DNA from: Candidatus Omnitrophota bacterium
GTDB lineage: Bacteria; Omnitrophota; Gorgyraeia; Tantalellales; Tantalellaceae
DNA: 64,000 nucleotides
Direction: 5' to 3'
NCBI GenBank assembly: GCA_043823005.1
Contig: JBDRBG010000013.1
Location: 25,233 to 89,232, forward strand
This document shows positions 3,245 to 63,935 of this stretch, piece after piece (position 1 is the stretch's first letter; every line of letters begins with the position of its first letter). The position numbers and the translations under genes are program-made. The notes under the pieces were generated by a model that searched no databases, was not told where the DNA came from, and saw only the letters and a program-made list of their open reading frames with translations.

Positions 3245-3250
3245 ATAACC

Positions 3251-3363
3251 TGTGGATATACTCCAATTTATCAACAAACTATCCACAAGGGAACGGATAT
3301 TTCATCCACAGGTTATCCTTGGTGGAAAGCTTTACAGCACAACGAGTTCCGCTGTTATCCACA
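3251..3363 (+). promoter_or_regulatory. cluster of four DnaA boxes in the dnaA-dnaN spacer (probable oriC part)
   Basis: TGTGGATAT at 3251-3259, CTATCCACA at 3279-3287, TCATCCACA at 3302-3310 and a perfect TTATCCACA at 3355-3363. Confidence 0.65.
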
Positions 3364-3446
3364 GGTTTTCAGTAGCTTACTATTAAGACTACGGCTATTT
3401 TTTAAAAAAGATAACAACGGTAACAGTAATAAAACGAGGAGGCTTC

Positions 3447-4599: not shown

Positions 4600-7418
<2,819 letters not shown>

Positions 7419-10263: not shown

Positions 10264-10302
10264 CCGTCTTTGCGAGGGAGCAAGAGCGCCCGCGGCAATC
10301 TA
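10264..10302 (+). repeat. family-1 intergenic repeat (CGTCTTTGCGAGG..GCGGCAATCT)
   Basis: CCGTCTTTGCGAGGGAGCAAGAGCGCCCGCGGCAATCT, preceded by the ACGGTTAACCGT palindrome module. Confidence 0.85.
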
Positions 10303-10908: not shown

Positions 10909-12765
10909 ATGTGCGGAATTATAGGATATACAGGAAACCGGGAAGCGGTACAAGTTTTGATGGAAGGATTAAGCCGTCTGGAATACCGCGGGTATGATTC
11001 GGCCGGAGTAGCTGTTCTGGAGGACGGGGAACTCTATCTTCGCAAGAAAAAGGGAAAACTCGCGGTATTGGCCGATGAGCTCAACCGGAATCCGCTTACC
11101 GGAGATACAGGGATAGGCCATACCCGGTGGGCAACGCATGGAGTGCCTAATGATGTAAACGCGCATCCGCATGCGGATAATAGATGTGATATCGCGGTTG
11201 TGCATAACGGAATAATTGAAAATTATCAGGAAATAAAAGAAGAACTTCAACGCAAAGGGTATGTTTTTTCTTCGGATACAGACAGCGAAGTAATCGCGCA
11301 TCTTGTGGCGGATAATTATAGAGGAGACCTCAGAATCGCATTAAAAACAGCGCTTGAAAAACTAAAAGGGTCTTTTGCTATCGGCGCGGTGCATAAAAAA
11401 GAAGCCGGGAGGATTGTGGGTGCTAGAAGGGATAGTCCGTTGATCCTGGGAATCGGGGAAAACGAGCATTTTATCGCAAGCGATATTCCCGCAGTTTTGG
11501 AATACACAAAAAACGTTATATATATAGAAAATAATGAAATGGTAGATTTGCATCCGGACAGATATGAGCTTTATGATATAAAGGGAGAAGAGATAAAGAG
11601 GAGTTCTACTTTTATTAAATGGGACATTTCTCAGGCAGAAAAAAAAGGGTATAAACATTTTATGCTTAAAGAAATTTTTGAACAACCAAAGGTATTAAAA
11701 AATATTTTCAAAGAACGGGTAAAAGCGGGAAAAGTAGAATTCGAAGAACTTGAAATACAGGAAGAAGATTTTAGAAATATTACGAACATAGCGATTGTTG
11801 CCTGCGGAACAGCTTATCACGCGGGACTTACAGCCAAGTATATTCTGGAAAAATACAGCAGGATACCCGTTTGGGTAGACACATCAAGTGAATTCAGATA
11901 CAGGGATCCGATTGTGAACGCGAAGAGCCTGGTTATAGTGATATCTCAATCAGGAGAAACCGCGGATACGCTGGCGGCATTAAGAGAGGCAAAAATACGG
12001 GGAGCCAAAGTTCTGGCAGTGTGCAATGTTCTGGGCAGTTCGATATCCAGAGAAGCAAACGGAGTTATTTATACGCACGCGGGACCCGAGATAGCGGTTG
12101 CTTCTACAAAAGCGTATACAGCCCAGCTGGCGATATTATATCTTTTCGCGTATTATCTCGCGAATATACAAAATAAAAAAGATCGATTTGAGCCGGAATT
12201 TTTAACCGAGATACAAAAAATTCCGGATATGACAGAAGAACTATTAAATGATTATTGCGGAGAAGATAATCAGATCGCAGAGTACGCGGCAAAATTTCAT
12301 GAATATTATCTTGCAAGAAACAATAAGAGCTGTTTTCTTTATCTCGGCAGGAACATTAACTATCCAAACGCTTTAGAAGGAGCTTTAAAACTGAAAGAAA
12401 TTTCTTATATCAGCGCAGAAGGATATCCCGCAGGAGAGATGAAGCACGGGCCCATAGCGTTGATTGACGAGAACCCATGGGTTGTGTGTATCGCTCCTCG
12501 ATCCGAGACGCACGAGAAGATGTTGTCTAATATGCAGGAAATAAAAGCAAGAGGCGGGATAGTTATTGCTATAGTGACAAAAGGGGAAAAAGGGATGAAA
12601 GAAAAAGGAGCGAATTATGTGATAAACATACCGTCGGTCCCGGAATTTTTTTCCCCGCTTTTTGTTGTGCTTCCGCTTCAGCTGTTGGCATACTATGTAG
12701 CGGCGGAGTTTGGATATGATATAGATCAGCCAAGGAATCTCGCGAAATCAGTTACTGTGGAATAA
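10909..12765 (+). CDS. glmS: glutamine--fructose-6-phosphate aminotransferase
   Basis: 618 aa with the N-terminal MCGIIGY Ntn-amidotransferase domain and two SIS domains. Confidence 0.95.
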   Translation: MCGIIGYTGNREAVQVLMEGLSRLEYRGYDSAGVAVLEDGELYLRKKKGKLAVLADELNRNPLTGDTGIGHTRWATHGVPNDVNAHPHADNRCDIAVVHNGIIENYQEIKEELQRKGYVFSSDTDSEVIAHLVADNYRGDLRIALKTALEKLKGSFAIGAVHKKEAGRIVGARRDSPLILGIGENEHFIASDIPAVLEYTKNVIYIENNEMVDLHPDRYELYDIKGEEIKRSSTFIKWDISQAEKKGYKHFMLKEIFEQPKVLKNIFKERVKAGKVEFEELEIQEEDFRNITNIAIVACGTAYHAGLTAKYILEKYSRIPVWVDTSSEFRYRDPIVNAKSLVIVISQSGETADTLAALREAKIRGAKVLAVCNVLGSSISREANGVIYTHAGPEIAVASTKAYTAQLAILYLFAYYLANIQNKKDRFEPEFLTEIQKIPDMTEELLNDYCGEDNQIAEYAAKFHEYYLARNNKSCFLYLGRNINYPNALEGALKLKEISYISAEGYPAGEMKHGPIALIDENPWVVCIAPRSETHEKMLSNMQEIKARGGIVIAIVTKGEKGMKEKGANYVINIPSVPEFFSPLFVVLPLQLLAYYVAAEFGYDIDQPRNLAKSVTVE

Positions 12766-12977: not shown

Positions 12978-13048
12978 CGTCTTTGCGATGGAGTGAAGGG
13001 GAGCGCGGTCCGCCAGAGGCGGATCCGCCTTTGGCGGACACTCTCGCA
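12978..13048 (+). repeat. family-1 repeat, long form, with GGCGGATCCGCC hairpin module
   Basis: CGTCTTTGCGATGGAG...CGCGGTCCGCCAGAGGCGGATCCGCCTTTGGCGGACA. Confidence 0.8.
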
Positions 13049-13167
13049 GTAAAAGGAAAAAGCTCTTTTAAAAAAGACCAAGCATTTTTCCGGAAACCTT
13101 TTTTTGTGAAGAACTAATAAATTTGACGAAAAAAGGTTTCTGTGCTATAAATAAAAACACATTTTTA

Positions 13168-13365: not shown

Positions 13366-13418
13366 GGGAGCGAAGCGACCGCGGCCCTCCTTAGGCGGAT
13401 CCGCCTTTGGCGGACAAT
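13366..13418 (+). repeat. family-1 repeat, long form
   Basis: GTCTTTGCGAGGGAGCGAAGCGACCGCGGCCCTCCTTAGGCGGATCCGCCTTTGGCGGACA. Confidence 0.85.
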
Positions 13419-13675
13419 CCAATAAAAATATAGTTTACCCACAAAATTTATATTTTTATTGCTATTCGAGATTGCTTCGCCCGTTTCATGGGCTCGCAAA
13501 CACATTTTAACTCAGTCCCCTTATTTTCCCCAGTTACTTTTAAGTACACCCTAACAAATTACAATTTTACCCTTTGATTAAATGTTGTTCTTACAGTATA
13601 ATATATTTTAATTAAACCGAAAAAGAAAAAAGTTGCCGGATACCAAGAAAAATAAAATATAAAGAAGGGAGGCGT

Positions 13676-15587: not shown

Positions 15588-15649
15588 TGCCTTTGAGAGC
15601 GACCCCCGGGAGAGCGGTCCTCCTGAGGCGGATCCGCCTTTGGCGGACA
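15588..15649 (+). repeat. family-1 repeat, degenerate long form
   Basis: TTGCCTTTGAGAGCGACCC..GAGCGGTCCTCCTGAGGCGGATCCGCCTTTGGCGGACA. Confidence 0.6.
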
Positions 15650-15673
15650 AGCTCATAAAGAAGGGGAAAAAAA

Positions 15674-16333: not shown

Positions 16334-16729
16334 ATGAAAGAAGAACGAAAAAATCCTCGTTATAAAGCGGCATATTTTCTGGAAATGGAAACCGGAAAGA
16401 AGAACATCGCGCTTGAGCTTATAGATTTAAGCAAATGCGGGATATCGTTTTTATCTCCCCAAAAACTCCGAAAAGGAACAAATCTCAGGGTAAGGATCTT
16501 TTTTAAAACAAAAAAGGTCAGTTTAGACGCGAAAGTGATAACCGCGGAAACTTCTGATAAAAACAAAACTCTTATAGGAGCAGAACTGCTTAGTGTCCCG
16601 GAAGAATTCAAAACCATTCTTGATAAAGAAATAGACGAAATCCAGAAACTTCAGATAAAACTAAACGTTCGAAGACAAGACCCAGTTTCTTTTAAACAAG
16701 CTTCCGCAGAATATTTAAATAATGAATAG
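16334..16729 (+). CDS. PilZ-domain protein (c-di-GMP binding)
   Basis: Contains RKNPR (RxxxR) and DLSKCGISF (DxSxxG) motifs. Confidence 0.6.
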   Translation: MKEERKNPRYKAAYFLEMETGKKNIALELIDLSKCGISFLSPQKLRKGTNLRVRIFFKTKKVSLDAKVITAETSDKNKTLIGAELLSVPEEFKTILDKEIDEIQKLQIKLNVRRQDPVSFKQASAEYLNNE

Positions 16730-16826
16730 TGTTTGGTGAACAGTGAATGGTGTCTTGTCCTGACATAGCTTGGAGGAGGAATGCAAAATAGCGGTTGGTG
16801 AATAGGAAAAAGGGAAAACATCCCAT

Positions 16827-23445: not shown

Positions 23446-23832
23446 ATGGCAAAGGCTAAGATAAAAAAAATACTAATTGTTGATGATGAAAAAGATTTCA
23501 CGGAATTAGTAAAAACAGTTTTGGAAGAAACCGGCAAGTATATAGTGGAAACAGTGAATCATGGACAGCTTGCTCTTAGTGCGGCAAAAAATTTTAAACC
23601 GCATTTGATTTTGTTAGATCTTATGCTTCCGGATCTTGAGGGAGCTGTTGTTGCTGAACAATTAGGGGACGAAGGAAGCGGAGTCCAGGCAACGCCTGTT
23701 ATTTTTTTGACTGGGATGATAACTGTGGATGAAGAAAAAGAACGTGAGGGGAGTATCGGGGGGCGCAAGTTTTTAGCTAAGCCCGTAGGAATCAGGGAGC
23801 TTATAGAGTGTGTTGAACAAAATGTTTTGTAG
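23446..23832 (+). CDS. stand-alone response-regulator receiver, paralog of 22875-23243
   Basis: The ATG at 23446 follows AGGAGG, whereas the track ORF starts at 23395. It shares the C-terminal motif GGxKFLAKPVGIRELxxCVEQN with the upstream paralog. Confidence 0.8.
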   Translation: MAKAKIKKILIVDDEKDFTELVKTVLEETGKYIVETVNHGQLALSAAKNFKPHLILLDLMLPDLEGAVVAEQLGDEGSGVQATPVIFLTGMITVDEEKEREGSIGGRKFLAKPVGIRELIECVEQNVL

Positions 23833-23873
23833 GTAAATAGGGACGTCACCCGCCAGGGAGACGTCCCTATTTA
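23833..23873 (+). repeat. GACGTC-centred hairpin element (family 2), copy 1
   Basis: GTAAATAGGGACGTC-ACCCGCCAGGGA-GACGTCCCTATTTAC. The stop codon of the upstream gene lies in the left arm. Confidence 0.8.
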
Positions 23874-23947
23874 CATTAAGCTATTCTCCTGGTAAACTAG
23901 GAAAATATGCAGGCAAGTAATAATAGTTTCAAGCCAGAGATGTATTC

Positions 23948-24343
23948 ATGCTCAACAATTTGAACAAAAGAAAAGTTTTTGTTACGACACTTTACACAAG
24001 CATTTTTTTCTTGCTTGGAGTGTCTTTTTTGTTTGGGTCTTTTTTCTCTGGGATTTTAATGTTTTCATTGATAACAAGTCTTAAAATGCGACATCAGCAC
24101 AAAAACACAGCAGCAATCATTCTTTTAGTTCTATCCATACTATTTTTAGCATATCCCGGAACATTTATGACAGGAGAAACAGAGGATTTGTTCGCTGTAA
24201 AAATAATGCCGGTTATTTATCAAGAGCACTATCTAAAAGGAGAGGTCAGACAAATAAAAGGAAACATTGTTTTTTGTAAGCATGAAAAAATACCTTTTGC
24301 GCCTAAATGGGCGCTAGTCTTTTGTTTTAGCGGTAGTAAATAG
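23948..24343 (+). CDS. small membrane protein, hypothetical
   Basis: 131 aa with two or three TM segments. It lies between two identical hairpin elements. Confidence 0.4.
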   Translation: MLNNLNKRKVFVTTLYTSIFFLLGVSFLFGSFFSGILMFSLITSLKMRHQHKNTAAIILLVLSILFLAYPGTFMTGETEDLFAVKIMPVIYQEHYLKGEVRQIKGNIVFCKHEKIPFAPKWALVFCFSGSK

Positions 24344-24377
24344 GGACGTCACCCGCCAGGGAGACGTCCCTATTTAC
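24336..24377 (+). repeat. GACGTC-centred hairpin element (family 2), copy 2, identical to copy 1
   Basis: 42-nt identity with 23833-23873, including the embedded TAG stop. Confidence 0.8.
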
Positions 24378-24442
24378 CTACCCTATTTAATTCGTCCTTG
24401 AAAAAAAGGGCATTTAATTATACAATTTATCGGAAGGCCGGG

Positions 24443-25819: not shown

Positions 25820-26085
25820 AAAGTTACGATCAAAGGGGCTTATTTGTTTGTGCAGGATAACGGAGCCCAGCAAAGGGGATAAAAACTGCATTTAGAACAA
25901 CAGATATTTTCACGATTTTGCTCTCCTCGATGCCATTTAGTTTCACATGTCCAGTAACTTTGGCATTTTTCACAGCAAATAAGTTTTTTCTTCTTTTTTT
26001 GGGACATAGGGCATTCTCCTCTACATGGTATTTGAAAGCAGTAACATAATTATATAATGAAAAAGTTTTTATTTCAATACCAATC

Positions 26086-26120
26086 TGAGGGACGTCACCC
26101 GACAGGGAGACGTCCCTATG
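26086..26120 (+). repeat. GACGTC-centred hairpin element (family 2), diverged copy 3, fused to a family-1 repeat
   Basis: GAGGGACGTCACCCGACAGGGAGACGTCCCTATG is immediately followed by CGTCTTTGCGAGG...GCGGCAATCT. Confidence 0.7.
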
Positions 26121-26124
26121 TATA

Positions 26125-30375: not shown

Positions 30376-30443
30376 CACAAAAAGAGTCGTTGGTCGTTAG
30401 TTGTTAGTAAGAGCCGCCTCAGTGGGCCGACGGCGAAACCTTT

Positions 30444-30483
30444 CCGTCTTTGCGAGGAGGTCGCAGGCCGACGCGGCAATTTC
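30444..30483 (+). repeat. family-1 repeat
   Basis: CGTCTTTGCGAGGAGGTCGCAGGCCGACGCGGCAATTTCTC. Confidence 0.85.
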
Positions 30484-30488
30484 TCCGC

Positions 30489-30525
30489 TGTCTTTGCGAG
30501 GGAGCAAGAGCGACCGCGGCAATCT
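30489..30525 (+). repeat. family-1 repeat in tandem with the preceding copy
   Basis: GTCTTTGCGAGGGAGCAAGAGCGACCGCGGCAATCTC. Confidence 0.85.
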
Positions 30526-30564
30526 CTTTGGTGAATAGCGTCTTGTCTTGAAAGTACAGAGAAG

Positions 30565-30675
30565 AAAGAGCTGGAATGCGCGGCTGGAAGGGCAAACATT
30601 CCGTGCTCAAACAGTCCTCGGATGATCTCTTGATCATCCTGCGGAACTGTGCGCGGAATGCTTGCCCTTCCAGCT
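30565..30675. repeat. ~110-bp nested imperfect palindrome inside the rnfA-rnfB repeat block
   Basis: The outer arms AGCTGGAA...TTCCAGCT include 21-nt arms GCTGGAAGGGCAAACATTCCG / CGGAATGCTTGCCCTTCCAGC. The inner palindrome is GGATGATCTCTTGATCATCC. Confidence 0.6.
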
Positions 30676-30685
30676 GAAAAGATTC

Positions 30686-30720
30686 CGTCTTTGCGAGGAG
30701 CGAAGGGGAGCGCGGCAGTT
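30686..30720 (+). repeat. family-1 repeat, variant 3' end
   Basis: CGTCTTTGCGAGGAGCGAAGGGGAGCGCGGCAGTT. Confidence 0.75.
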
Positions 30721-30821
30721 TATTCAGTGAATAGTGGTGAGTGAATGGTGAATAGTTGCAGGAGCCGTCTCTTCGCCATAATAAGCGGATCCGCCTCAGT
30801 GGGCCAGCGGCGAACCCCTTC

Positions 30822-30863
30822 CGTCATTGCGAGGAGGCGCGGAGCGGCGACGCGGCAATATCG
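30822..30863 (+). repeat. family-1 repeat (GTCATTGCGAGG variant)
   Basis: CGTCATTGCGAGGAGGCGCGGAGCGGCGACGCGGCAATATCG. Confidence 0.8.
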
Positions 30864-30966
30864 ATAAAAGCAAAAAGGAAAAAGACAGAAACATATAAAT
30901 TTAAGATATGTAGTTTCTGAGGGCGAATAAGAAAATAGTTTAAAAAAGTAACAACAGAACAAAATA

Positions 30967-35170: not shown

Positions 35171-35261
35171 ACAAAAAATTAGTTCAGAGGGACACCCCAG
35201 GGATTGAAATTGGGACAGGTCTGGGATTAATTTCAGAACCGTCCCTGATTTCCGCTCTTCT

Positions 35262-35337
35262 GTCTTTGCGAGGGAGCAAGTGTGATTGCGTCAATTCTCC
35301 GTCTTCGCGAGGAGCGTGAGCGACGCGGCAAACTCGG
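35262..35337 (+). repeat. two tandem family-1 repeats, the first degenerate
   Basis: GTCTTTGCGAGGGAGCAAGTGTGATTGCGTCAATTCTC followed by CGTCTTCGCGAGGAGCGTGAGCGACGCGGCAAACTCGG. Confidence 0.75.
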
Positions 35338-35686
35338 ATAGAAATAGAATAAAAAGAAAAAATAAACCACAGAGAGCACAGAGGCACAGAGGGGGAAATA
35401 AGGCGCCTTTGGCGCCGTTCACGGGTCAAGGGTGAAGGGAAAGCGCTTCATCCGTCATTGGAGGAGTGTAGATATTAGGGACGGTTCTGAATTTGAACCT
35501 ACACCTGTCCCAAAATTAATCCCACACCTGTCCCCTAACCGTCGAAAGTTGGGTTTTGAATGGCTCTGTGACTCAGAGGCTCTGTGGTGAAAAATCTGGA
35601 AATCGGTCTTTAAAAAAGTGAATCGTCGTTAGTGAATGGTGAATAGTGAGATTGCCGCGGTCGCTCGTGCTCCCTCGCAAAGACAG
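35338..35686 (+). repeat. upstream flank block of the giant gene: modules Y (CACAGAG-rich), Z and X (CTCTGTGACTCAGAG-containing), then an inverted family-1 copy
   Basis: Shares long stretches with 50840-51072, for example ...AGAAATAGAATAAA..AGAAAAAA..CAGAGAGCACAGAG.CACAGAGGGGG and TTGGGTTTTGAAT.GCTCTGTGACTCAGAG.CTCTGTGG.GAAAAATCTGGAAATCGGTCTTTAAAAAAG. Confidence 0.75.
35648..35686 (-). repeat. family-1 repeat, inverted orientation
   Basis: GAGATTGCCGCGGTCGCTCGTGCTCCCTCGCAAAGACAG. Confidence 0.85.
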
Positions 35687-35707
35687 AAAAGGAGGAATGA
35701 CCCATTT

Positions 35708-35750
35708 CGTCATTGCGAACCCTGAGCCAAGCGAAGGGTGCGGCAATCTC
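35708..35750 (+). repeat. family-1 repeat, diverged
   Basis: CGTCATTGCGAACCCTGAGCCAAGCGAAGGGTGCGGCAATCTC. Confidence 0.7.
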
Positions 35751-35820
35751 TAGAAAAAGTAAAAAAAAGACAGGGCTGGGAGTGGATTCAACCTGTTTTC
35801 AATCTTCAGGAAAGCTTTCA

Positions 35821-35850
35821 TTAGACTAACTAGCTTTTCCGTGATATAAT
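35821..35850 (+). promoter_or_regulatory. candidate promoter of the giant gene
   Basis: TTAGAC, an 18-nt spacer, then TATAAT, located 75 nt upstream of the ATG at 35926. Confidence 0.35.
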
Positions 35851-35925
35851 GCACGAAATATTTTTGCAAATAATGCATATATATTAGAAAATGTTAATAA
35901 TCAATACGAATAATATAACGAAACA

Positions 35926-47900: not shown

Positions 47901-50718
47901 TCAATTAACGGAAGAAGAAGGAAATGAATTAAAAAGAAGAATAGAGATAGACGGCTTAAGTTCTTTGCAAGGGGCAAAAGAATACACAAGAAATGTGTTT
48001 GTGGTGTTTAAAGGGAAAATAGATCTTTTAGGGCGGAAAGAAGATATAACAACTGCTATAGAAAAATATGTGATTGTGCAAGCTCTTAAGATGGCGCAGG
48101 GTGAAAAAGAATTAGCGGCGCGAAAACTTCTTATTCCGGAAACTGTGCTGTATCCCAAAATAGAACAAATTATGACACCAGGGACTCTGGATAAAACAAC
48201 TGTTAGTATTGAATATGATTTTACGGATCCGGAATTATTTAAAGAAGCTAAGGAAAGAGAAAATTTAGCTATTGAAAGGCAGATCCGGGATTTTTCAAAA
48301 GGGGAAAAAGATACTATTGATTTAAACGAACTCAAGGGATTAATGAAAAGGGAAATAAATTTTGCAATGGTTTCCTGGGCATTGAAACAATCAGGAGGAA
48401 ACAAGGCTAAAGCGGCGGAATTATTAGGTGTTAGCAAAAGGACGTTGTGGAACAAAACAGAAGAGCAGAATCTGGGGTATGCGGATATACAGGAACTAGA
48501 CGCGGTAAGAGCCGTAGAGACATCTGATAAGACTATAACATTAATTGAAAGGGTGCGCAAAACTAACCAAAAACTGGAGGAATATTTGATGGTCCAGGCA
48601 TTAATATTGACAAAAGGAAACAAACAAGAGGCAGCACGTAAATTAGGGATTTCAAGACGTACTTTGTATGACTATTTAGAACGGAGTAACAAGAGAGAAG
48701 ACTATGCCCCAAAAAGCTTTTGCTGTATGAAACAAGATATCGAGTTAGACAAACTTCTAAAAGAGATTAGATGCTATTTTAGGGCGCGAGAACAAGAAGA
48801 ACTTTTAGTTGATTCTAATATGTTGAAAAAAGAATGGCTGAAGGAAGAAAAAATGGAAGAGAGTGTAGCTTTTTTCTTATCTTTTTTTTCTGAAGGAATG
48901 GTAGATATTGTTAATGAGATCAGACAATTTGAAATGAACGCAATAGAGAATATTGATTTGACAAAACTAATACAAAGAATAGCAAACGAAATAGAAGCGA
49001 TGATAATTTCTGAAATATTACATAAAACAAAAGGTCATAGAACTAAAACAGCAGAATTGTTAGAAGTGAGCAGAAGGACGCTTTATGAGAGGATGGAACA
49101 ATGCAAACTGCTTTATCCTGAAAGAACAGCACAATACGCGGAAAAAGCGAAATGGGGCAAAGATGTTCATGTTAAGTTAAAAGATGTGCGGGCAAAGATC
49201 GATGACAAAATGAAAGAATATTTAAGCAGAGTTGCTTTGTTGAAAACCAAAAGGAATCGCACAGCAGCGGCGTGTTGTCTAGGGATTTCCAAACGTACTT
49301 TATATGACTATTTAATTGAAATAAACAGTGCAAGAGGCGACAAAGAGTATTCATTAGCATTTGTTAAAGAATTCAAGAGTTTACCCGTACTGCTAGAAGA
49401 AATCTTACAATGTTTGACGAAACCTTGTTCGCTTGAAAAGAATATATTCCGGGAAGAAATGGATAGCCTTGTCGGCCATGCAAAACCAGAAAAAAAAGAC
49501 ATACTTACTATAGACGAAGCCTATCAATATGTTGCTAAAGCAACAGAAAATATTGATACGGACAAGTCAATGGCTATAACAGAAGAGATTTTAAAGTACC
49601 CAATAAACGATATTTTGGTTGTGGGCACAGGTTTGATCGGGATGTCGTTTTTATTGGCGCTTATGGATAAACAAGTGACTTTTGTGGATCCTTGCGTGGA
49701 CAAGGTCCGGGATATGGAGCGATGGGCTCAAGCAATAGAGCAACAGACAGGACAACCCCTAAACATACAATTTGTTTGCGCATCAATCGATGAAATTAAT
49801 GAACAAAAGTATGATCTTATTACTTTGATTGATTTTGAAGAAAACGCATTAGGTGTCGAATTTGACAAAGCATTATCAAAGGCTCGGGAAATTCTTCGCG
49901 AAAGAGCATATCTTGTAATAGATAGTAACTATAACGGAAAGGGAATAAAAGTTCTAGAGGATTATTTTAAGACCTGGCAAATGTCCGGTAACAATAAGTT
50001 TTATGAGGGGAGAATCTCTAAGTATGCAAAGAACCGGATTGTTTTAGTCGAAAATCCGGAGGTAGCAGAACCAGAGAAAGAGATATTTGAGCAAGAGCAA
50101 AACAGTGCAGGAAAAGATTTTTTTGATGAACTGATTATTCAAGCAATTAAGGCAAAGCGACGCAGAGAAAAAATATTGATAGCTATTGATATAAGCTGGA
50201 TCCCTGAGATGCATCAATCTTTTATGCAGGGGGTTTTAAATCAATTGGCGCGGATATACAGAAAAAAAGGCCTGGATAATGTTTTAATACATAGAAGGCC
50301 TGACGCGGAAAGGACGATAAAGATGATAAAAGACACAATTTTTTATGAAGATATTAAACTATCAAATGTTATAGCTGTTACAGGAAAAGAAACAATAGAA
50401 TCCGGATTTTTTAATGAAATAAGAAGCAGTGAAAATGAAAAAAAAGCGCTTTTACTCGGGATCAGCAATAAGGATTTGAACGGAGAAATTGATTTGGAGG
50501 ATATGGTCAATTATATCGGAATTTTAGAAATGCTTACAGGTGCTTTAAAATTAGTTTCTTGTAAAAAAGAACCGGAATCAATCGAAATTCCCGGTGTCGG
50601 AGAATTTAAAAGAATAACACCGCGTACCTGGGTAGTATTTCCCAAAGAACGCAGACTAGTTGAAGAAGTAAAAAAAGAATATAAAACCCAAAAAAAACAC
50701 ATAAAATCCGCCGCATAA
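35926..50718 (+). CDS. giant multidomain protein (4930 aa): TM N-terminus, tandem ~300-aa repeats, two SecA-like ATPase modules, multiple Fis/NtrC-type HTH modules and a C-terminal Rossmann-like domain
   Basis: Uninterrupted 14.8-kb ORF. SecA hallmarks occur twice ([10 protein letters not shown], GxGKTL, [9 protein letters not shown](R/K)GV(Q/H)IHT(T/V)N(N/D)YLAKRDA, IVDE(A/G)DS(L/I)LIDE, GGRGVDI/GARGVHI, GDPGSSR-like). There are 12 or more HTH units of the form ...TKGN(K/R)[18 protein letters not shown]. Confidence 0.8.
   Translation: [4930 protein letters not shown]
39880..41830 (+). other. SecA-like motor module 1 within the giant ORF (NBD1, NBD2, helical scaffold-like)
   Basis: [13 protein letters not shown]...[16 protein letters not shown]...[37 protein letters not shown]...[12 protein letters not shown]...[10 protein letters not shown]...[21 protein letters not shown]...[12 protein letters not shown]. 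Confidence 0.75.
44870..46790 (+). other. SecA-like motor module 2 within the giant ORF
   Basis: [17 protein letters not shown]...[16 protein letters not shown]...[37 protein letters not shown]...[12 protein letters not shown]...[11 protein letters not shown]...GGLYVIGSG...[27 protein letters not shown]. Confidence 0.75.
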
Positions 50719-50803
50719 ACCCCGGAAATGGGGACGGTTGTTGTATACGCTCAATAATTTGGTAACATTTTTTAAGGGGGCCTTACTGCTAACTTCGTTT
50801 GTC

Positions 50804-50839
50804 GTCATTGCGAGAAGCAAGAGCGACGCGGCAAACTCG
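50804..50839 (+). repeat. family-1 repeat
   Basis: CGTCATTGCGAGAAGCAAGAGCGACGCGGCAAACTCG. Confidence 0.8.
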
Positions 50840-51072
50840 AATGAAAATAGAATAAAGAAAAAAAATTAACCTCAGAGAGCACAGAGACACAGAGGGGGGA
50901 AACAAACTGAGGCGAGAAGAGGGAAAAAAGATATTGTTGGGTTTTGAATAGCTCTGTGACTCAGAGACTCTGTGGAGAAAAATCTGGAAATCGGTCTTTA
51001 AAAAAGCGAATAGTAGTTGGTGCATAGTGGAAAGAGATTGCCGCGGTCGCTCAAGCTCCCTCGCAAAGACGG
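50840..51072 (+). repeat. downstream flank block of the giant gene, homologous to 35338-35686
   Basis: Modules Y and X and an inverted family-1 copy occur in the same order as upstream. Confidence 0.75.
51034..51072 (-). repeat. family-1 repeat, inverted orientation
   Basis: GAGATTGCCGCGGTCGCTCAAGCTCCCTCGCAAAGACGG. Confidence 0.85.
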
Positions 51073-51171
51073 ATGAGGTTCGCTTTCGGACGTGTCCTGC
51101 GCCTGAGCAACGCGAATGGAACAGGGAGATGGCTCCGACTAACGACCCCCGACTAACGACTAACGTGCCGG

Positions 51172-51250
51172 AATGGGGACGTTTCTGAAACTAATCCCAG
51201 ACCCGTCCCAATTTCAATCCCACACCTGTCCCCTAACAGTTGATAGGCAG
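51172..51250 (+). repeat. module Z (AATCCCAGACCCGTCCCAATTTCAATCCCACACCTGTCCCCTAAC)
   Basis: Direct copy of 35463-35550 and inverted copy of 35190-35250. Confidence 0.7.
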
Positions 51251-51358
51251 TTTGTAGATGGTCCTGAAACTGATGCAGTAGATGTCCCTAATATAAAAAT
51301 CACTTGCGTTGTTTAGCGTTATTTGATAGAATCACAGCTTACAAGAATCACATTCTAT

Positions 51359-51433
51359 CGCGGGGTGGAGCAGAGGTAGCTCGTGAGGCTCATAACCTCA
51401 AGGTCGGAGGTTCGATTCCTTCCCCCGCAACCA
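51359..51433 (+). tRNA. initiator tRNA-fMet (anticodon CAT)
   Basis: CGCGGGGTGGAGCAG...GGCTCATAACC...GGTTCGATTCC...CCCCGCAACCA. The C1-A72 mismatch and three G-C pairs in the anticodon stem match bacterial initiator tRNA. Confidence 0.85.
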
Positions 51434-51437
51434 AAAA

Positions 51438-51482
51438 ATAAGGGATTTCAAATATATATTTTTGAAATCCCTTTATTTTTTA
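51438..51482 (+). terminator. rho-independent terminator after tRNA-fMet
   Basis: AGGGATTTCAAA/TTTGAAATCCCT stem followed by a T-run. Confidence 0.7.
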
Positions 51483-53954: not shown

Positions 53955-55229
53955 GTGAATATTTTGGTTATAGGTTCAGGCGGCAGGGAACATGCCTTAT
54001 GCTGGAAATTAAAACAAAGTACTTTTACTGAATCAATATATTGCGCGCCCGGGAACGGCGGGACTTCTCAAGAAGCTGTTAATGTAGAGCTGGATGTTGC
54101 TCAGCATAAAAAAGTGACGGATTTTTGCAAAGAAAAAAACATTGATTTAGTAGTTGTAGGCCCTGAAGCGCCGCTGGCGCTTGGTATGGCAGATGATCTA
54201 GAAAGAGCGGGAATAAAGGTTTTTGGGCCGTCTTATGCCGGCGCAAGGATGGAATCCAGTAAGATTTTCGCGAAAGAGCTCATGGGAAGATATAACATTC
54301 CAACAGCCGCTTTTAGAATATTTGAGGATTTTAAACAGGCGGAGGAATATATTAATTCTAAAGGGGCGCCTATAGTGGTTAAAGCTTACGGGCTTGCCGC
54401 GGGCAAAGGCGTAATAATCGCGGAAACAATCGAAGATGCAGTTAAAGCCGCGGAAGATATGCTTGTGAAAAACCGGTTTGGTTCTGCCGGCCAAAAAATA
54501 ATAGTCGAAGAGTTTTTGACAGGAGAAGAAGCTTCTATTTTGATAATAACGGACGGTACAAATATTATACCTCTTGTTACCAGCCAGGATCACAAAAGGG
54601 TTTATGACGGAGACAAAGGGCCTAACACAGGAGGGATGGGAGCTTATTCACCGGCGCCTATTGTTAGCGAAGAACTTTTTGATGAAGTAATGGAAAAAAT
54701 AGCGCGTCCTACTATTGATAGCCTGCGGAATGAAGGGATCACGTATAAAGGAGTTCTGTATATCGGGTTAATGATAACGGATGCCGGGGTCAAGGTTCTT
54801 GAATATAACGTGCGTTTTGGCGATCCGGAAACTCAGGTAGTTGTTCCGCGTTTAAAATCAGATTTAGCGGAGCTTTTAATGCGAGCCGCAGAAGGAGACA
54901 TATCCGGGCTGGAACTTGAATGGGATAAAAAAGAATATGTATGTGTTGTATGCGCTTCAGCAGGATACCCGGGTGATTATGATAAAGGCAAACTGATCAC
55001 CGGACTGGACGAGGCCAGGAAACTGGGAGCCCTGGTGTTTCATGCCGGAACACAAGTAGAGGACAACGGAATTGTAACTTTCGGAGGACGGGTACTTAAT
55101 GTAGTCGGATGCGGAGAAGGAATACAGCAGGCAATAGAAAATACATATAAAGCTGTTAAACAAATAAATTTTGAAGGAATGCATTTTCGAAAAGATATCG
55201 GGCACAGGGCAGTTGCAAATAGTCGTTAG
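53955..55229 (+). CDS. purD: phosphoribosylamine--glycine ligase
   Basis: MNILVIGSGGREHALCWKL N-terminus and an ATP-grasp domain. The last codons (NSR plus stop) lie in the repeat module AGTCGTTAGTCGTT. Confidence 0.93.
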   Translation: MNILVIGSGGREHALCWKLKQSTFTESIYCAPGNGGTSQEAVNVELDVAQHKKVTDFCKEKNIDLVVVGPEAPLALGMADDLERAGIKVFGPSYAGARMESSKIFAKELMGRYNIPTAAFRIFEDFKQAEEYINSKGAPIVVKAYGLAAGKGVIIAETIEDAVKAAEDMLVKNRFGSAGQKIIVEEFLTGEEASILIITDGTNIIPLVTSQDHKRVYDGDKGPNTGGMGAYSPAPIVSEELFDEVMEKIARPTIDSLRNEGITYKGVLYIGLMITDAGVKVLEYNVRFGDPETQVVVPRLKSDLAELLMRAAEGDISGLELEWDKKEYVCVVCASAGYPGDYDKGKLITGLDEARKLGALVFHAGTQVEDNGIVTFGGRVLNVVGCGEGIQQAIENTYKAVKQINFEGMHFRKDIGHRAVANSR

Positions 55230-55278
55230 TCGTTGGTCGTTCGTTGTTAATAGCCCTCTCCCGACGGCGAACCTCACC

Positions 55279-55320
55279 CGTCATTGCGAGGAGGAACGAA
55301 GTGACGACGCGGCAATCTCG
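55279..55320 (+). repeat. family-1 repeat
   Basis: CGTCATTGCGAGGAGGAACGAAGTGACGACGCGGCAATCTCG, preceded by the AGTCGTTAGTCGTT and CCCTCTCCCGACGGCGAACC modules. Confidence 0.85.
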
Positions 55321-55360
55321 ATAAAAATCAAAAGAATACAATAAAAAAAGGAGATTTAAT

Positions 55361-56829: not shown

Positions 56830-56876
56830 GGGAGATTGCCGTGCTACTCGCTAGGCTTGCGGCTCGCAATGACAAA
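56830..56876 (-). repeat. family-1 repeat, inverted and diverged
   Basis: GAGATTGCCGTGCTACTCGCTAGGCTTGCGGCTCGCAATGACAAAAG. Confidence 0.7.
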
Positions 56877-56887
56877 AGCTTGTTCGT

Positions 56888-56926
56888 TAGTGCGAAGGCC
56901 GAGGCAAACGAGGTCTGCGGCAATCT
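56888..56926 (+). repeat. family-1 repeat with a degenerate 5' end
   Basis: GTGCGAAGGCCGAGGCAAACGAGGTCTGCGGCAATCTC. Confidence 0.7.
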
Positions 56927-57018
56927 CAAAAAAGTGGCAACCTTTTTAGAGTGATACAGAATTAACTAAAACAATCAACGAATTTAACGGCATACGATAC
57001 GATAACGAAAGGAAAGAA

Positions 57019-61599: not shown

Positions 61600-62394
61600 A
61601 TGGATTGGGGAATGAAAAATCGTTTGAGCAATCTTTTCCAGGCAGACGGACATTGTTTCTTTTTGCCTATAGATCATGGTTATTTTCAAGGGCCTACACA
61701 TTGTTTGGAAAAACCCGGAGAGACTATAGCTCCGCTTCTTAAATATTGTGACGCGCTTTTTGTTACACGGGGCGTATTACGTTCGTGTGTGGAACCGGGC
61801 ATCGAAAAACCCATTATATTAAGGGTTTCCGGAGGCACCAGTGTTGTGGGAAAGGATCTGGCAAATGAGATTTTGACGACTTCTATAGAAGAAATCCTCA
61901 GGCTTAATGTGTCAGCTGTCGGAGTTTCGGTGTTTATCGGAAGCGATTATGAAAAAGAAACATTACGCAATCTCGCGGATCTTGTAAATAAATGTGAAGG
62001 GTACGGTATTCCTGTAATGGCTGTGACTGCGGTAGGAAAAGAGATGGTAAAACGAGAAGCAAGATATCTCGCGTTATGCTGCCGTATTGCCGCGGAATTA
62101 GGCGCAAAAGTGGTAAAAACCTATTGGTGCGCGAAAGATTTTGATAAAGTTATAAAAGGATGTCCGGTACCGGTAGTTATGGCTGGAGGGCCTAAATGTG
62201 AAACAGCGCTTGAAGTTCTGGAATTTGTTTATGACGGTATGCAGAAAGGTTCTGTCGGCATAAACCTGGGAAGAAATGTATGGCAGAACGCTCATCCTGT
62301 TGCTATGGCAAAATCTTTATACGCGGTTATTCATGAAAAAGCTACGCCAAAAGAAGCGTATGAAATATTTAATGAAGAGATCAATAGTCGTTAG
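61600..62394 (+). CDS. class I aldolase of the DhnA/FbaB (DeoC-like) family
   Basis: The ATG at 61600 is preceded by AGGAGG. The family assignment is by general resemblance and I did not locate the Schiff-base lysine. The last codons (NSR plus stop) are provided by the AGTCGTTAGTCGTT repeat module. Confidence 0.65.
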   Translation: MDWGMKNRLSNLFQADGHCFFLPIDHGYFQGPTHCLEKPGETIAPLLKYCDALFVTRGVLRSCVEPGIEKPIILRVSGGTSVVGKDLANEILTTSIEEILRLNVSAVGVSVFIGSDYEKETLRNLADLVNKCEGYGIPVMAVTAVGKEMVKREARYLALCCRIAAELGAKVVKTYWCAKDFDKVIKGCPVPVVMAGGPKCETALEVLEFVYDGMQKGSVGINLGRNVWQNAHPVAMAKSLYAVIHEKATPKEAYEIFNEEINSR

Positions 62395-62483
62395 TCGTTC
62401 GTCGTTAGTAGGAGCCCTCTCCTGAGGGCGAACAGAATGAAGGGAAAAGAGAAAAGGAAAAAGTTGGGGAGAGAATTTTTTTC

Positions 62484-62544: not shown

Positions 62545-63561
62545 ATGAAAGTAGGCGTATACTACAACAACAACGATGTCCGAGTAGAAGAACGTTCTAT
62601 TCCCAAAATAGGGCCGGATGAAGTATTGGTAAAAGTCATTGCCAGCGGTATTTGCGGAAGCGATGTAATGGAATGGTACCGCATAAAAAAAGCTCCTTTA
62701 GTATTAGGACATGAAATATCCGGAGAAATAGCTGAAATAGGAGAAAATGTAGATAGATATAAAATAGGGGACAGGGTATTTGTTGCGCATCATGTGCCGT
62801 GTAATACTTGCCATTACTGCTTGAAGGATGAACAGACTGTTTGCGATACTTTACTTTCTACCAATTATGATCCCGGAGGATTTGCAGAATACATTAGAGT
62901 GCCAGAGATCAATGTGGATCGGGGGATATTTTTGCTTCCCGAAGAATTAACGCATGAACACGGTGTTTTTGCCGAACCGCTTGCTTGTGTCGTACGCGGA
63001 CAAAGAAAAGCAGGAGTAAGACCGGGGCAGAGTGTTCTTATTCTGGGCAGCGGGATGTCAGGATTATTGCATCTTTTATTGGCCCGGGCGCAAGGAGCGG
63101 GCCGGATTATGATGACTGATATAGATGAATTTCGCCTGAAAAAAGCTCAAGAGTTGGGAGCAGACGCTGTTATCAACGCTAAAAGCGATATTCCCGGCCA
63201 GGTAATGGCGCTTAATAGCAGGCTTGCGGATATAGTTATTGTATGTACAAGCGCGTTAACTGCGTTTAATCAGGCAATAAATTCTGTAGATCGAGGCGGA
63301 ATTATTTTATTGTTTGCTCCGTTAGACCCGGATAAATATCTCTCTCTTCCGCTTTTTAATGTTTGGCGTAATGGAACAAAACTAATACCTTCATACGGAA
63401 ACAGCCCTCCGGATGCTGAAGAAGCCATAGAATTAATGCGTTCAAAAAAAGTTTCCATAGACAAACTGATAACCCATAAACTTAAATTAGACGATATAGC
63501 ACAGGGTTTTAATCTTGTCAGCCAGGCCAAAGAATCCATTAAAGTTATTATCTACCCCTGA
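62545..63561 (+). CDS. zinc-dependent alcohol dehydrogenase (MDR family, threonine/sorbitol dehydrogenase-like)
   Basis: Motifs GICGSDV...GHEISGEIAEIG...GSGMSG. Confidence 0.8.
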   Translation: MKVGVYYNNNDVRVEERSIPKIGPDEVLVKVIASGICGSDVMEWYRIKKAPLVLGHEISGEIAEIGENVDRYKIGDRVFVAHHVPCNTCHYCLKDEQTVCDTLLSTNYDPGGFAEYIRVPEINVDRGIFLLPEELTHEHGVFAEPLACVVRGQRKAGVRPGQSVLILGSGMSGLLHLLLARAQGAGRIMMTDIDEFRLKKAQELGADAVINAKSDIPGQVMALNSRLADIVIVCTSALTAFNQAINSVDRGGIILLFAPLDPDKYLSLPLFNVWRNGTKLIPSYGNSPPDAEEAIELMRSKKVSIDKLITHKLKLDDIAQGFNLVSQAKESIKVIIYP

Positions 63562-63567
63562 CGTGTT

Positions 63568-63711
63568 ATAAATGGGGACGAGTGTACGCGCTCAACAATT
63601 AAGTAACAGTTCTTAAGGGGGTACTTCCTGCTAACTTCGTCTGTCGTCATTGCTGGAGCATGAGCGACGCGGCAAACTGGGTGGGAAGTAAATGGTGACG
63701 TCCCCATTTAT
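63568..63711. mobile_element. MITE-like 144-bp element with perfect 13-bp terminal inverted repeats
   Basis: ATAAATGGGGACG at 63568-63580 and CGTCCCCATTTAT at 63699-63711. The interior carries a family-1 repeat copy and is homologous to 50725-50840. Confidence 0.6.
63644..63680 (+). repeat. family-1 repeat inside the MITE-like element
   Basis: CGTCATTGCTGGAGCATGAGCGACGCGGCAAACTGG. Confidence 0.75.
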
Positions 63712-63728
63712 CTAATTTAAACAAAAAA

Positions 63729-63935
63729 ATGTGGTATAATATAACTATGAAAATGGCAAGAAATAAAACTAAACTAATTAAGATGTCTAAAAAGGACAAT
63801 CCTTTTGTTGCCGATTCGCCACAACAATGTATTAGTTTTATGTGGGAACTCACGGCTGAATTGTGGTCATTGCAAGGATCAGAATATGTTAAACGAAGAT
63901 TACAAAGAAATATTACAAATCTTATTAAACAATAA
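63729..63935 (+). CDS. small hypothetical ORF, possibly paired with a downstream truncated ORF
   Basis: 68-aa ORF. A following ORF opens at 63937 (KFLIVGAYAMGAQGYPRATG...) and is cut by the window end. Confidence 0.25.
   Translation: MWYNITMKMARNKTKLIKMSKKDNPFVADSPQQCISFMWELTAELWSLQGSEYVKRRLQRNITNLIKQ

Follow-up and report, generated by a model that had tools for sequence, protein, structure and literature searches.

The question raised by the locus downstream of a Zn-dependent alcohol/threonine-type dehydrogenase (ADH) gene is whether 144 bp of DNA with perfect inverted ends are a mobile element. The first-pass annotation of the window (the whole stretch of 64,000 nucleotides analysed, from a Candidatus Omnitrophota bacterium) had described these 144 bp as a discrete MITE bounded by terminal inverted repeats (TIRs) and carrying a repeat of the family called family-1. 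The 144 bp are instead best read as a composite of three short intergenic repeat modules of mosaic origin and not as one cut-and-paste unit. As composite repeat DNA in an intergenic position past a gene, they are fairly ordinary and change little.

The window begins at the chromosomal replication origin, with the order rnpA/yidC (minus strand), dnaA at 1838, DnaA boxes at 3245-3446, dnaN, gyrB at 4962 and gyrA. The ADH gene lies near the other end (62545-63561, plus strand, from the ORF list, with the Pfam domains ADH_N and ADH_zinc_N), and the element follows it directly, as claimed, starting 6 nt past the TGA stop (63559-63561). At 19 nt beyond the end of the element, an extended -10-like site, TGTGGTATAAT (63730-63740, plus strand), can be read from the sequence and precedes a small gene with its ATG at 63747. 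This site is uncalled in a consensus scan because its -35 is poor. With a stop codon upstream and the extended -10-like site downstream, the element thus occupies the interval from the end of one gene to the likely promoter of the next. The small gene starts ~7 nt past the extended -10 without a Shine-Dalgarno sequence and may be leaderless; an ORF from 63886 overlaps its end, and the pair, neither member of which has a Pfam match, resembles a toxin-antitoxin-style cassette. ADH homologues are widespread (best match 67% in a protein search of genome contigs). Those of other Omnitrophota are followed by unrelated sequence, so that there is no orthologous empty site for comparison.

The inverted ends are exactly where they had been described: ATAAATGGGGACG at 63568-63580 is, at 13/13 positions, the reverse complement of CGTCCCCATTTAT at 63699-63711. 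The arms enclose 118 nt, and complementarity ends at both their inner and outer edges. The left arm (plus strand) is the left half-site of a hairpin type referred to here as H-type, and also the exact 5' boundary of the block common with a second copy. It is followed by a segment specific to a module named unit A (63581-63640, plus strand), whose sole paralogue in the window is found by blastn and alignments at ~50737-50798, and by a family-1 repeat of subtype F1b (63641-63678, plus strand; …GAGCGACGCGGCAAACT), which is supported by alignments and by nhmmer (E = 3e-4) and confirms the family-1 unit reported inside the element. The homology with the second copy stops at this repeat. A 9-nt linker then leads to a 24-nt near-palindrome with no assigned strand (63688-63711), made of the halves GTAAATGGTGAC and GTCCCCATTTAT and complementary at 10/12 positions, the right half of which is the right arm. 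Since the right arm is half of a near-palindrome, the H motif is present three times in the 144-bp element and not twice. The element had also been called non-coding, rightly, as open frames over both copies are not conserved. Coding potential was rejected because on the plus strand a stop occurs in copy 1 where copy 2 is open, while on the minus strand the two frames lose their similarity after 16 aa. The junk ORF that covers the element on the minus strand (51 aa) retrieved no homologue when used as the query of a protein search.

A paralogue had been announced after the stop of a giant gene of 4930 aa, and it is present there on the plus strand, from 7 nt past the TAA (50725-50840; blastn, alignments and HMM). 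It consists of the left H arm (50725-50737), unit A and F1b (50799-50840). The interior of the element matches 50726-50837 with 82.3% identity over 113 nt by blastn and 79% column identity by MAFFT, so that the homology is real but slightly lower than the ~85% first given. The second copy keeps the left end, as had been noted, but the statement that it has no inverted right end does not hold as such: GAAATGGGGACGG at 50725-50737 is complementary at 12/13 positions to CCGTCCCAATTTC at 51203-51215 (minus strand), 465 nt apart, and the latter segment also pairs locally with 51171-51181 as a hairpin. Homology of the element with copy 2 begins exactly at the left arm and stops at the 3' end of F1b (…GGCAAACT), 20 nt short of the right arm.

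F1b is found a third time, together with a downstream block, at 35296-35398 (plus strand; 86% identity with 50803-50901, family D12), unit A being absent upstream. Three loci, 63562-63720 (locus i), 50719-50905 (locus ii) and 35240-35402 (locus iii), were aligned together. Loci i and ii have the left H arm, unit A and F1b in common, loci ii and iii have F1b and ~65 nt downstream in common (D12), and the F1b core GAGCGACGCGGCAAACT is common to all three at 17/17 positions. The module combinations are A+F1b+H-palindrome, A+F1b+X and F1'+F1b+X, respectively. One module associated with different left and right partners points to recombination or copying at dispersed repeats and not to the transposition of a fixed unit. 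Judged from these alignments, this argues that F1b is a junction between shuffled modules and that family-1 units look like recombination or junction points, not like the cargo of larger elements. The suggestion that family-1 units are generally mobilised as part of larger TIR elements becomes doubtful as well, since 2 of the 26 family-1 copies are linked to unit A.

The intergenic regions flanking the 4930-aa giant gene (35171-35925 and 50719-51358) are themselves paralogous mosaics. They contain blocks of 96-102 nt in the same order with 74-88% identity (D11, D12, D13, D15), along with one pair of 57 nt in inverted orientation (I2). Long direct repeats of repeat debris thus lie on either side of the giant gene.

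MITEs are defined by TIRs, extensive base-pairing and target-site duplications (TSDs) (PMC3049150). A true MITE at this locus would be a deletion derivative of a DDE-type IS moved in trans via its 13-bp TIRs, and copy 2 would have kept only the 5' portion, its right part having been exchanged through recombination at the family-1 unit inside. Such an origin is quite improbable, although the perfect 13-bp inverted ends, the length of 144 bp and the non-coding, intergenic and highly base-paired character of the element are all features described for MITEs (PMC3049150), and a second, partial copy is present. Indeed, TIRs (in one copy) and base-pairing are found, but the flanks CGTGTT and CTAATT show no TSD. 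The sole possible duplication is the 2-bp AT on each side if the TIR is taken as 11 bp; this AT can just as well be read as extending the palindrome, and at its place copy 2, whose left flank is CCCCGG, has GG. In the 64-kb window, a single two-ended copy exists, copy 2 having the left end and interior only, with homology that stops at F1b before the right arm is reached. No further copies were detected by blastn in the window or in ~1.2 Mb of other loci including 12 Omnitrophota contigs, the sole match against 80 loci being a palindrome-like one in the contig L068 of another Omnitrophota MAG. In viral contigs (IMG/VR), 0 matches were obtained with the unit-A 26-mer and with the right palindrome; a unit-A 20-mer has none there either and retrieves one unrelated high-GC match only from JGI metagenomes. 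The empty protein search with the junk ORF also counts against a MITE. No transposase domain was found among the window genes tested. Thus, the TSDs, additional copies and matching transposase by which the first-pass annotation had proposed to check its reading all failed to appear in the DNA examined. The bacterial MITEs Correia/NEMIS, RUP and ERIC resemble the element in being 100-160 bp long, TIR-bounded, non-coding and intergenic, with a strongly base-paired transcript, whereas they are present in tens to hundreds of two-ended copies with defined TSDs (e.g. TA), and some of them have a cognate IS; here, these features are not seen.

The arm motif also belongs to an independent family of hairpins, which bears against a MITE as well. 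With at most one mismatch, the motif AAATRGGGACG occurs at 14 sites in the 64-kb window, for 2.8 +/- 1.5 expected, a count reached in 0/100 shuffles. Ten of these 14 sites form five local hairpins, and two "orphans" coincide exactly with the points where the unit-A copies start at the 5' side. The window also holds 11 perfect inverted pairs with arms of 13 nt or more lying within 200 nt, whereas first-order Markov simulations predict 0.45. As 34% of the simulated windows hold at least one perfect 13-bp inverted pair within 200 nt, the 13-bp pair has only modest significance by itself, and what sets it apart from chance is the over-representation of the arm motif. The H doublets in the 64 kb amount to one long-range pair at 118 nt and one possible pair at 465 nt, besides the five tight hairpins, whose interiors range from 0 to 21 nt. 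Another perfect 13-bp inverted repeat, GCTGGAAGGGCAA, is located at 30583-30595 and 30662-30674 with a 66-nt spacer, in the rnfA-rnfB spacer amid four family-1 copies.

The clearest relatives of the arms are the D14 hairpins, to which the palindrome at 63688-63711 is related. The first of them (D14a; GTAAATAGGGACGTCACCCGCCAGGGAGACGTCCCTATTTAC; 23833-23874, plus strand) extends from the first base past the stop codon of a response-regulator gene and has a predicted folding energy of -31.8 kcal/mol (z = -8.5). The hairpin recurs unchanged at 24336-24377, with the stop codon TAG within its left arm, and a 79% copy at 26082-26123 adjoins a family-1 unit, with a perfect TTGACA-16-TATAAT promoter of the rnf operon downstream of it. 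D14 hairpins are positioned 0 and -8 nt from stop codons, and the element, D14b and D14c with its family-1 unit all have the end of a gene on one side and a promoter-like site on the other. The two identical 42-nt hairpins can be extended to 46-nt inverted repeats (GTAG…/…CTAC; 23829-23874 and 24336-24381) that bracket an ORF of 131 aa (23948-24343), with stop codons at or inside the hairpin arms. This ORF was considered as a RAYT/Y1 transposase and rejected, as it has no Y1_Tnp match.

Related hairpins are found in other Omnitrophota. The 18-mer TAAATAGGGACGTCACCC, which is the left half of the D14 hairpin of the window, recurs in L068 at 10991-11008, with a chance expectation of 9e-4. There its start falls within the stop codon of an ADH homologue (61% protein identity), RNAfold pairs GGGACG with CGTCCC ~60 nt downstream, and 10991-11014 is related to the palindrome of the element. 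The hairpin motif is common to distant Omnitrophota. A further Omnitrophota contig (L070) carries an A-tract/GGGGACG...CGTCCCC/T-tract hairpin, AAAAAAGGGGACGGTTC…GAACCGTCCCCTTTTTTT, with the textbook shape of a bidirectional terminator. The A/T-flanked GGGGACG/CGTCCCC is thus a recurrent stem base closing variable interiors, from 0 nt to ~60 nt in these examples and 118 nt in the element.

The sense-strand RNA of the element is predicted to fold at -54.3 kcal/mol (z = -3.7), the arms forming a 12-13-bp closing stem on a three-way junction. The antisense RNA gives z = -3.5 and the single-stranded DNA -24.4 kcal/mol (z = -3.3). The local palindrome 63688-63711 alone is weak, at -6.7 kcal/mol, and the long-range pairing of the arms would therefore win thermodynamically. 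A more specific role than termination or stabilisation, as a structured small RNA or as a cis-regulatory element of the 3'UTR, could be proposed from the stable structure predicted for the sense strand and from the orientation of both copies, which are co-directed with their upstream genes. However, the stability of unit A of copy 2 alone is unremarkable (z = -0.26), that copy does not keep the predicted substructures and compensatory changes between the two copies amount to 0 pairs. With Rfam 15, only tRNAs reach the gathering threshold and nothing stands above noise in 63500-63800 or 50680-51440, while the viral and JGI scans with the 20- and 26-mers and the junk-ORF search point to no relatives outside this genome. 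The unremarkable fold of copy 2, the lack of compensatory changes and the lack of an Rfam match together make a specific structured-RNA function highly unlikely.

With a probability of about one half, the locus is best explained as a gene-end H-type hairpin whose interior was expanded by a block of unit A and family-1, or as such a block placed beside an H palindrome, and which would probably act as a terminator-like or 3'-end-protecting RNA structure. The first module is a block of ~110 nt comprising an H-type half-site, unit A and the F1b family-1 hairpin, present twice on the sense strand and each time 7-8 nt past a stop codon; the second is the free-standing 24-nt H-type palindrome. The 13-bp "TIRs" correspond to the A/T-flanked GGGGACG/CGTCCCC stem base that, at other sites of this genome and in other Omnitrophota, closes gene-3'-end hairpins with variable interiors. 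When the ADH gene is transcribed, pairing of the arms would close a multibranch structure of 144 nt, with a U-rich stretch behind it, just ahead of the next promoter. Once closed, this structure may be terminator-like or 3'-end-protecting, as are REP/BIME and SPRITE repeats. The block could have spread via recombination or copying among dispersed repeats, with family-1 as a crossover or target point, or alternatively by insertion into a pre-existing gene-end hairpin.

For an intrinsic terminator, the position of the element is suitable, with the stop codon 6 nt upstream and the extended -10 at 19 nt downstream, and its stem base is G+C-rich with A/T flanks; the related D14a hairpin is partly called in a scan. 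An ordinary terminator hairpin had been named beforehand as an explanation that would displace the MITE. The arms do match a family of gene-3'-end hairpins, but the 118-nt loop is far larger than that of canonical intrinsic terminators. In addition, the element is uncalled in the consensus scan and its U-tract is short and interrupted (AUUUAUCUAAUUU). Since clean canonical terminators follow the tRNAs of this genome, H-type hairpins may have another role. The start of either unit-A copy falls within 8 nt of a stop codon, for which the chance is ~0.05 for a random intergenic position, a positional regularity that rests on a small number as there are only two copies.

The arrangement could also be a chance juxtaposition devoid of function, in which neutral repeat debris accumulated in a tolerant 3' spacer and an orphan half-site came to lie 105 nt upstream of a complete H palindrome. 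The frequency of 13-bp inverted pairs in simulated windows (34%) is in line with this, as is the crowding of the spacers with at least eight short repeat families. The two copies show no covariation, and relatives at 75% GyrB identity lack family-1, which suggests that the repeats are dispensable. Nevertheless, the arms are identical at 13/13 positions, in contrast to the left half of the palindrome beside them with its 10/12, the unit-A copies and the D14 hairpins all lie within 0-8 nt of stop codons and the fold of the whole element reaches z = -3.7, so that pure chance is considered unlikely.

Repeats of the REP type offer another comparison. REPINs consist of two inverted REPs with a variable spacer that keeps a hairpin, with spacings up to ~110 bp and A/T runs beside some doublets (PMC3337134). 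The element likewise has two inverted motif copies and a hairpin-forming spacer, an architecture that fits this description. It could accordingly be read as a REPIN-like doublet of two inverted REP-like H half-sites, which a Y1 (RAYT/IS200-like) transposase from elsewhere in the genome would move in single-stranded form, leaving no TSD. The absence of a TSD, the stable fold of the single-stranded DNA, the over-representation of the H motif and its intergenic location are consistent with this, and the head-to-head family-1 pairs at 35646-35752 and 56831-56929 are BIME-like. However, a single doublet with a 118-nt spacer exists in the 64-kb window, the remaining H pairs being tight hairpins and not doublets of palindromes. 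The block common to both copies has one arm only, and no Y1 transposase is found in the window, the D14-flanked ORF included. The doublet reading is accordingly held to be rather improbable.

More broadly, REP/BIME/REPIN sequences resemble the repeats of this window in being short, imperfectly palindromic intergenic units that are dense (26 family-1 copies in 64 kb) and sometimes head-to-head, that occur after genes and inside operons (rnfA-rnfB, purD-purE) and that form inverted pairs with hairpin spacers and no TSD. They differ in showing no sequence similarity and in their phylum, Proteobacteria instead of Omnitrophota, and the 64-kb window contains no RAYT. Whereas a REP is a conserved palindrome, family-1 consists of conserved boxes around a varying and covarying stem. 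The element, unlike a REPIN, pairs an orphan half-site with a palindrome and not two full REPs.

Two other known systems are, beside REP/BIME/REPIN, the closest functional analogues of the proposed gene-end hairpin. SPRITE is a terminator-like dispersed repeat with a long duplex followed by a U-rich tract; it is enriched near CDS 3' ends and co-option as a terminator has been suggested (PMC3049150). The H-type and D14 hairpins and the arms of the element match this duplex and U-rich tract near CDS 3' ends, but sequence and host are different, the duplex of the element encloses 118 nt and not a short loop, and its U-tract is short and interrupted. The BOX repeat of Streptococcus is a modular boxA-boxB(n)-boxC composite whose end modules pair (PMC3049150). 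The three-way alignment reveals the same kind of organisation, with separable modules in different combinations, and BOX also resembles the element in its intergenic location and long stem-loops with paired end modules and a variable interior. The modules are unrelated in sequence, however, the order is not fixed here as F1b has different partners at three loci, and the composite has a copy number of 1-2 in the DNA examined.

Family-1 itself is a REP-like hairpin repeat. An HMM built from 23 copies gives 26 matches in the 64-kb window (22 of them plus-strand, 4 minus-strand; e.g. at 10264, 16825, 30488, 35646, 59336 and 62479), i.e. a density of ~1 per 2.5 kb, and 26/26 are intergenic whereas intergenic DNA represents 13.6% of the window. 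Conserved boxes are found on the 5' side (GTCWTTGCGAGG) and on the 3' side (GCGGCAATCTC) of each unit. The inner stem, surrounded by a TTGC/GCAA helix that is invariant, varies in sequence while pairing is kept (e.g. GGCAC/GTGCC, ACCCT/AGGGT, GGCCT/AGGCC). Double changes affect 5/5 pairs of this stem, with a covariation of 0.191 versus 0.065 when shuffled (0/500) and at most 0.063 in slid controls. Copies also occur inside operons, in the rnfA-rnfB (30376-30966) and purD-purE (55230-55360) spacers. Family-1 thus behaves in a REP/BIME-like way. The closest relatives found (L082 and L084; GyrB 75-76%) have the same dnaA-dnaN-gyrB-gyrA-glmS synteny, and no family-1 copy was found in 22 kb of their syntenic origin region, against 26 in 64 kb here. 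The repeat expansion is thus specific to this lineage.

Family-1-like units (GTCATTGCGAG…GAAGCAATC) were observed in other phyla and contigs, at L079 3246-3542, at L041 5278 and 9839 and at L068 20885-20921. An Anaerolineae MAG has 7-8 tandem family-1-like units with a period of ~45 nt, one of them inverted, directly after an ADH homologue, while a Brocadiales MAG and another Omnitrophota MAG have single copies. A search of the open-access full-text literature for Omnitrophota intergenic repeats or for the family-1 core 11-mer found no description.

The H motif and family-1 might conceivably form an undescribed, cross-phylum REP-like class (Omnitrophota, Brocadiales, Anaerolineae) with conserved boxes and a variable, compensated stem, which would expand explosively in single lineages. 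The 144-bp element would then be a REPIN-like mobile doublet carrying family-1, moved without TSDs by a hairpin-recognising enzyme and targeting gene-end hairpins so that termination is preserved. This scenario is speculative and regarded as improbable. A spreading mechanism, if demonstrated, would extend the REP/RAYT picture beyond the well-studied Proteobacteria. The value of the locus lies in its context, namely dense family-1 in this genome, none in the 22 kb of its relatives and related motifs in other phyla. Such repeats also have practical consequences in uncultivated bacteria, as they give rise to spurious ORFs, interrupt assemblies and may influence how operons are expressed.

At least six more families of short spacer repeats occur in the window, with GGCGGATCCGCCTTTGGCGGAC, AGTGAATGGTGAATAGTG, TAGTCGTTAGTCGTT, AACGGTTAACCGTCAAC, CACAGAGGCACAGAGG and GGGACNGGTNTGGGATT as examples. 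The sites of these extra families are 12999-13061, 13375-13437, 15608-15670, 16713-16752, 30718-30757, 35609-35648, 55218-55244 and 62383-62409. The spacer before the rnf operon contains a Cys-rich ORF of 55 aa (CCEKC…CCSKC; 25840-26007, minus strand), which may encode an unannotated small zinc-ribbon protein and is preceded by a promoter-like TTGAAA-17-TATAAT at 26077-26049.
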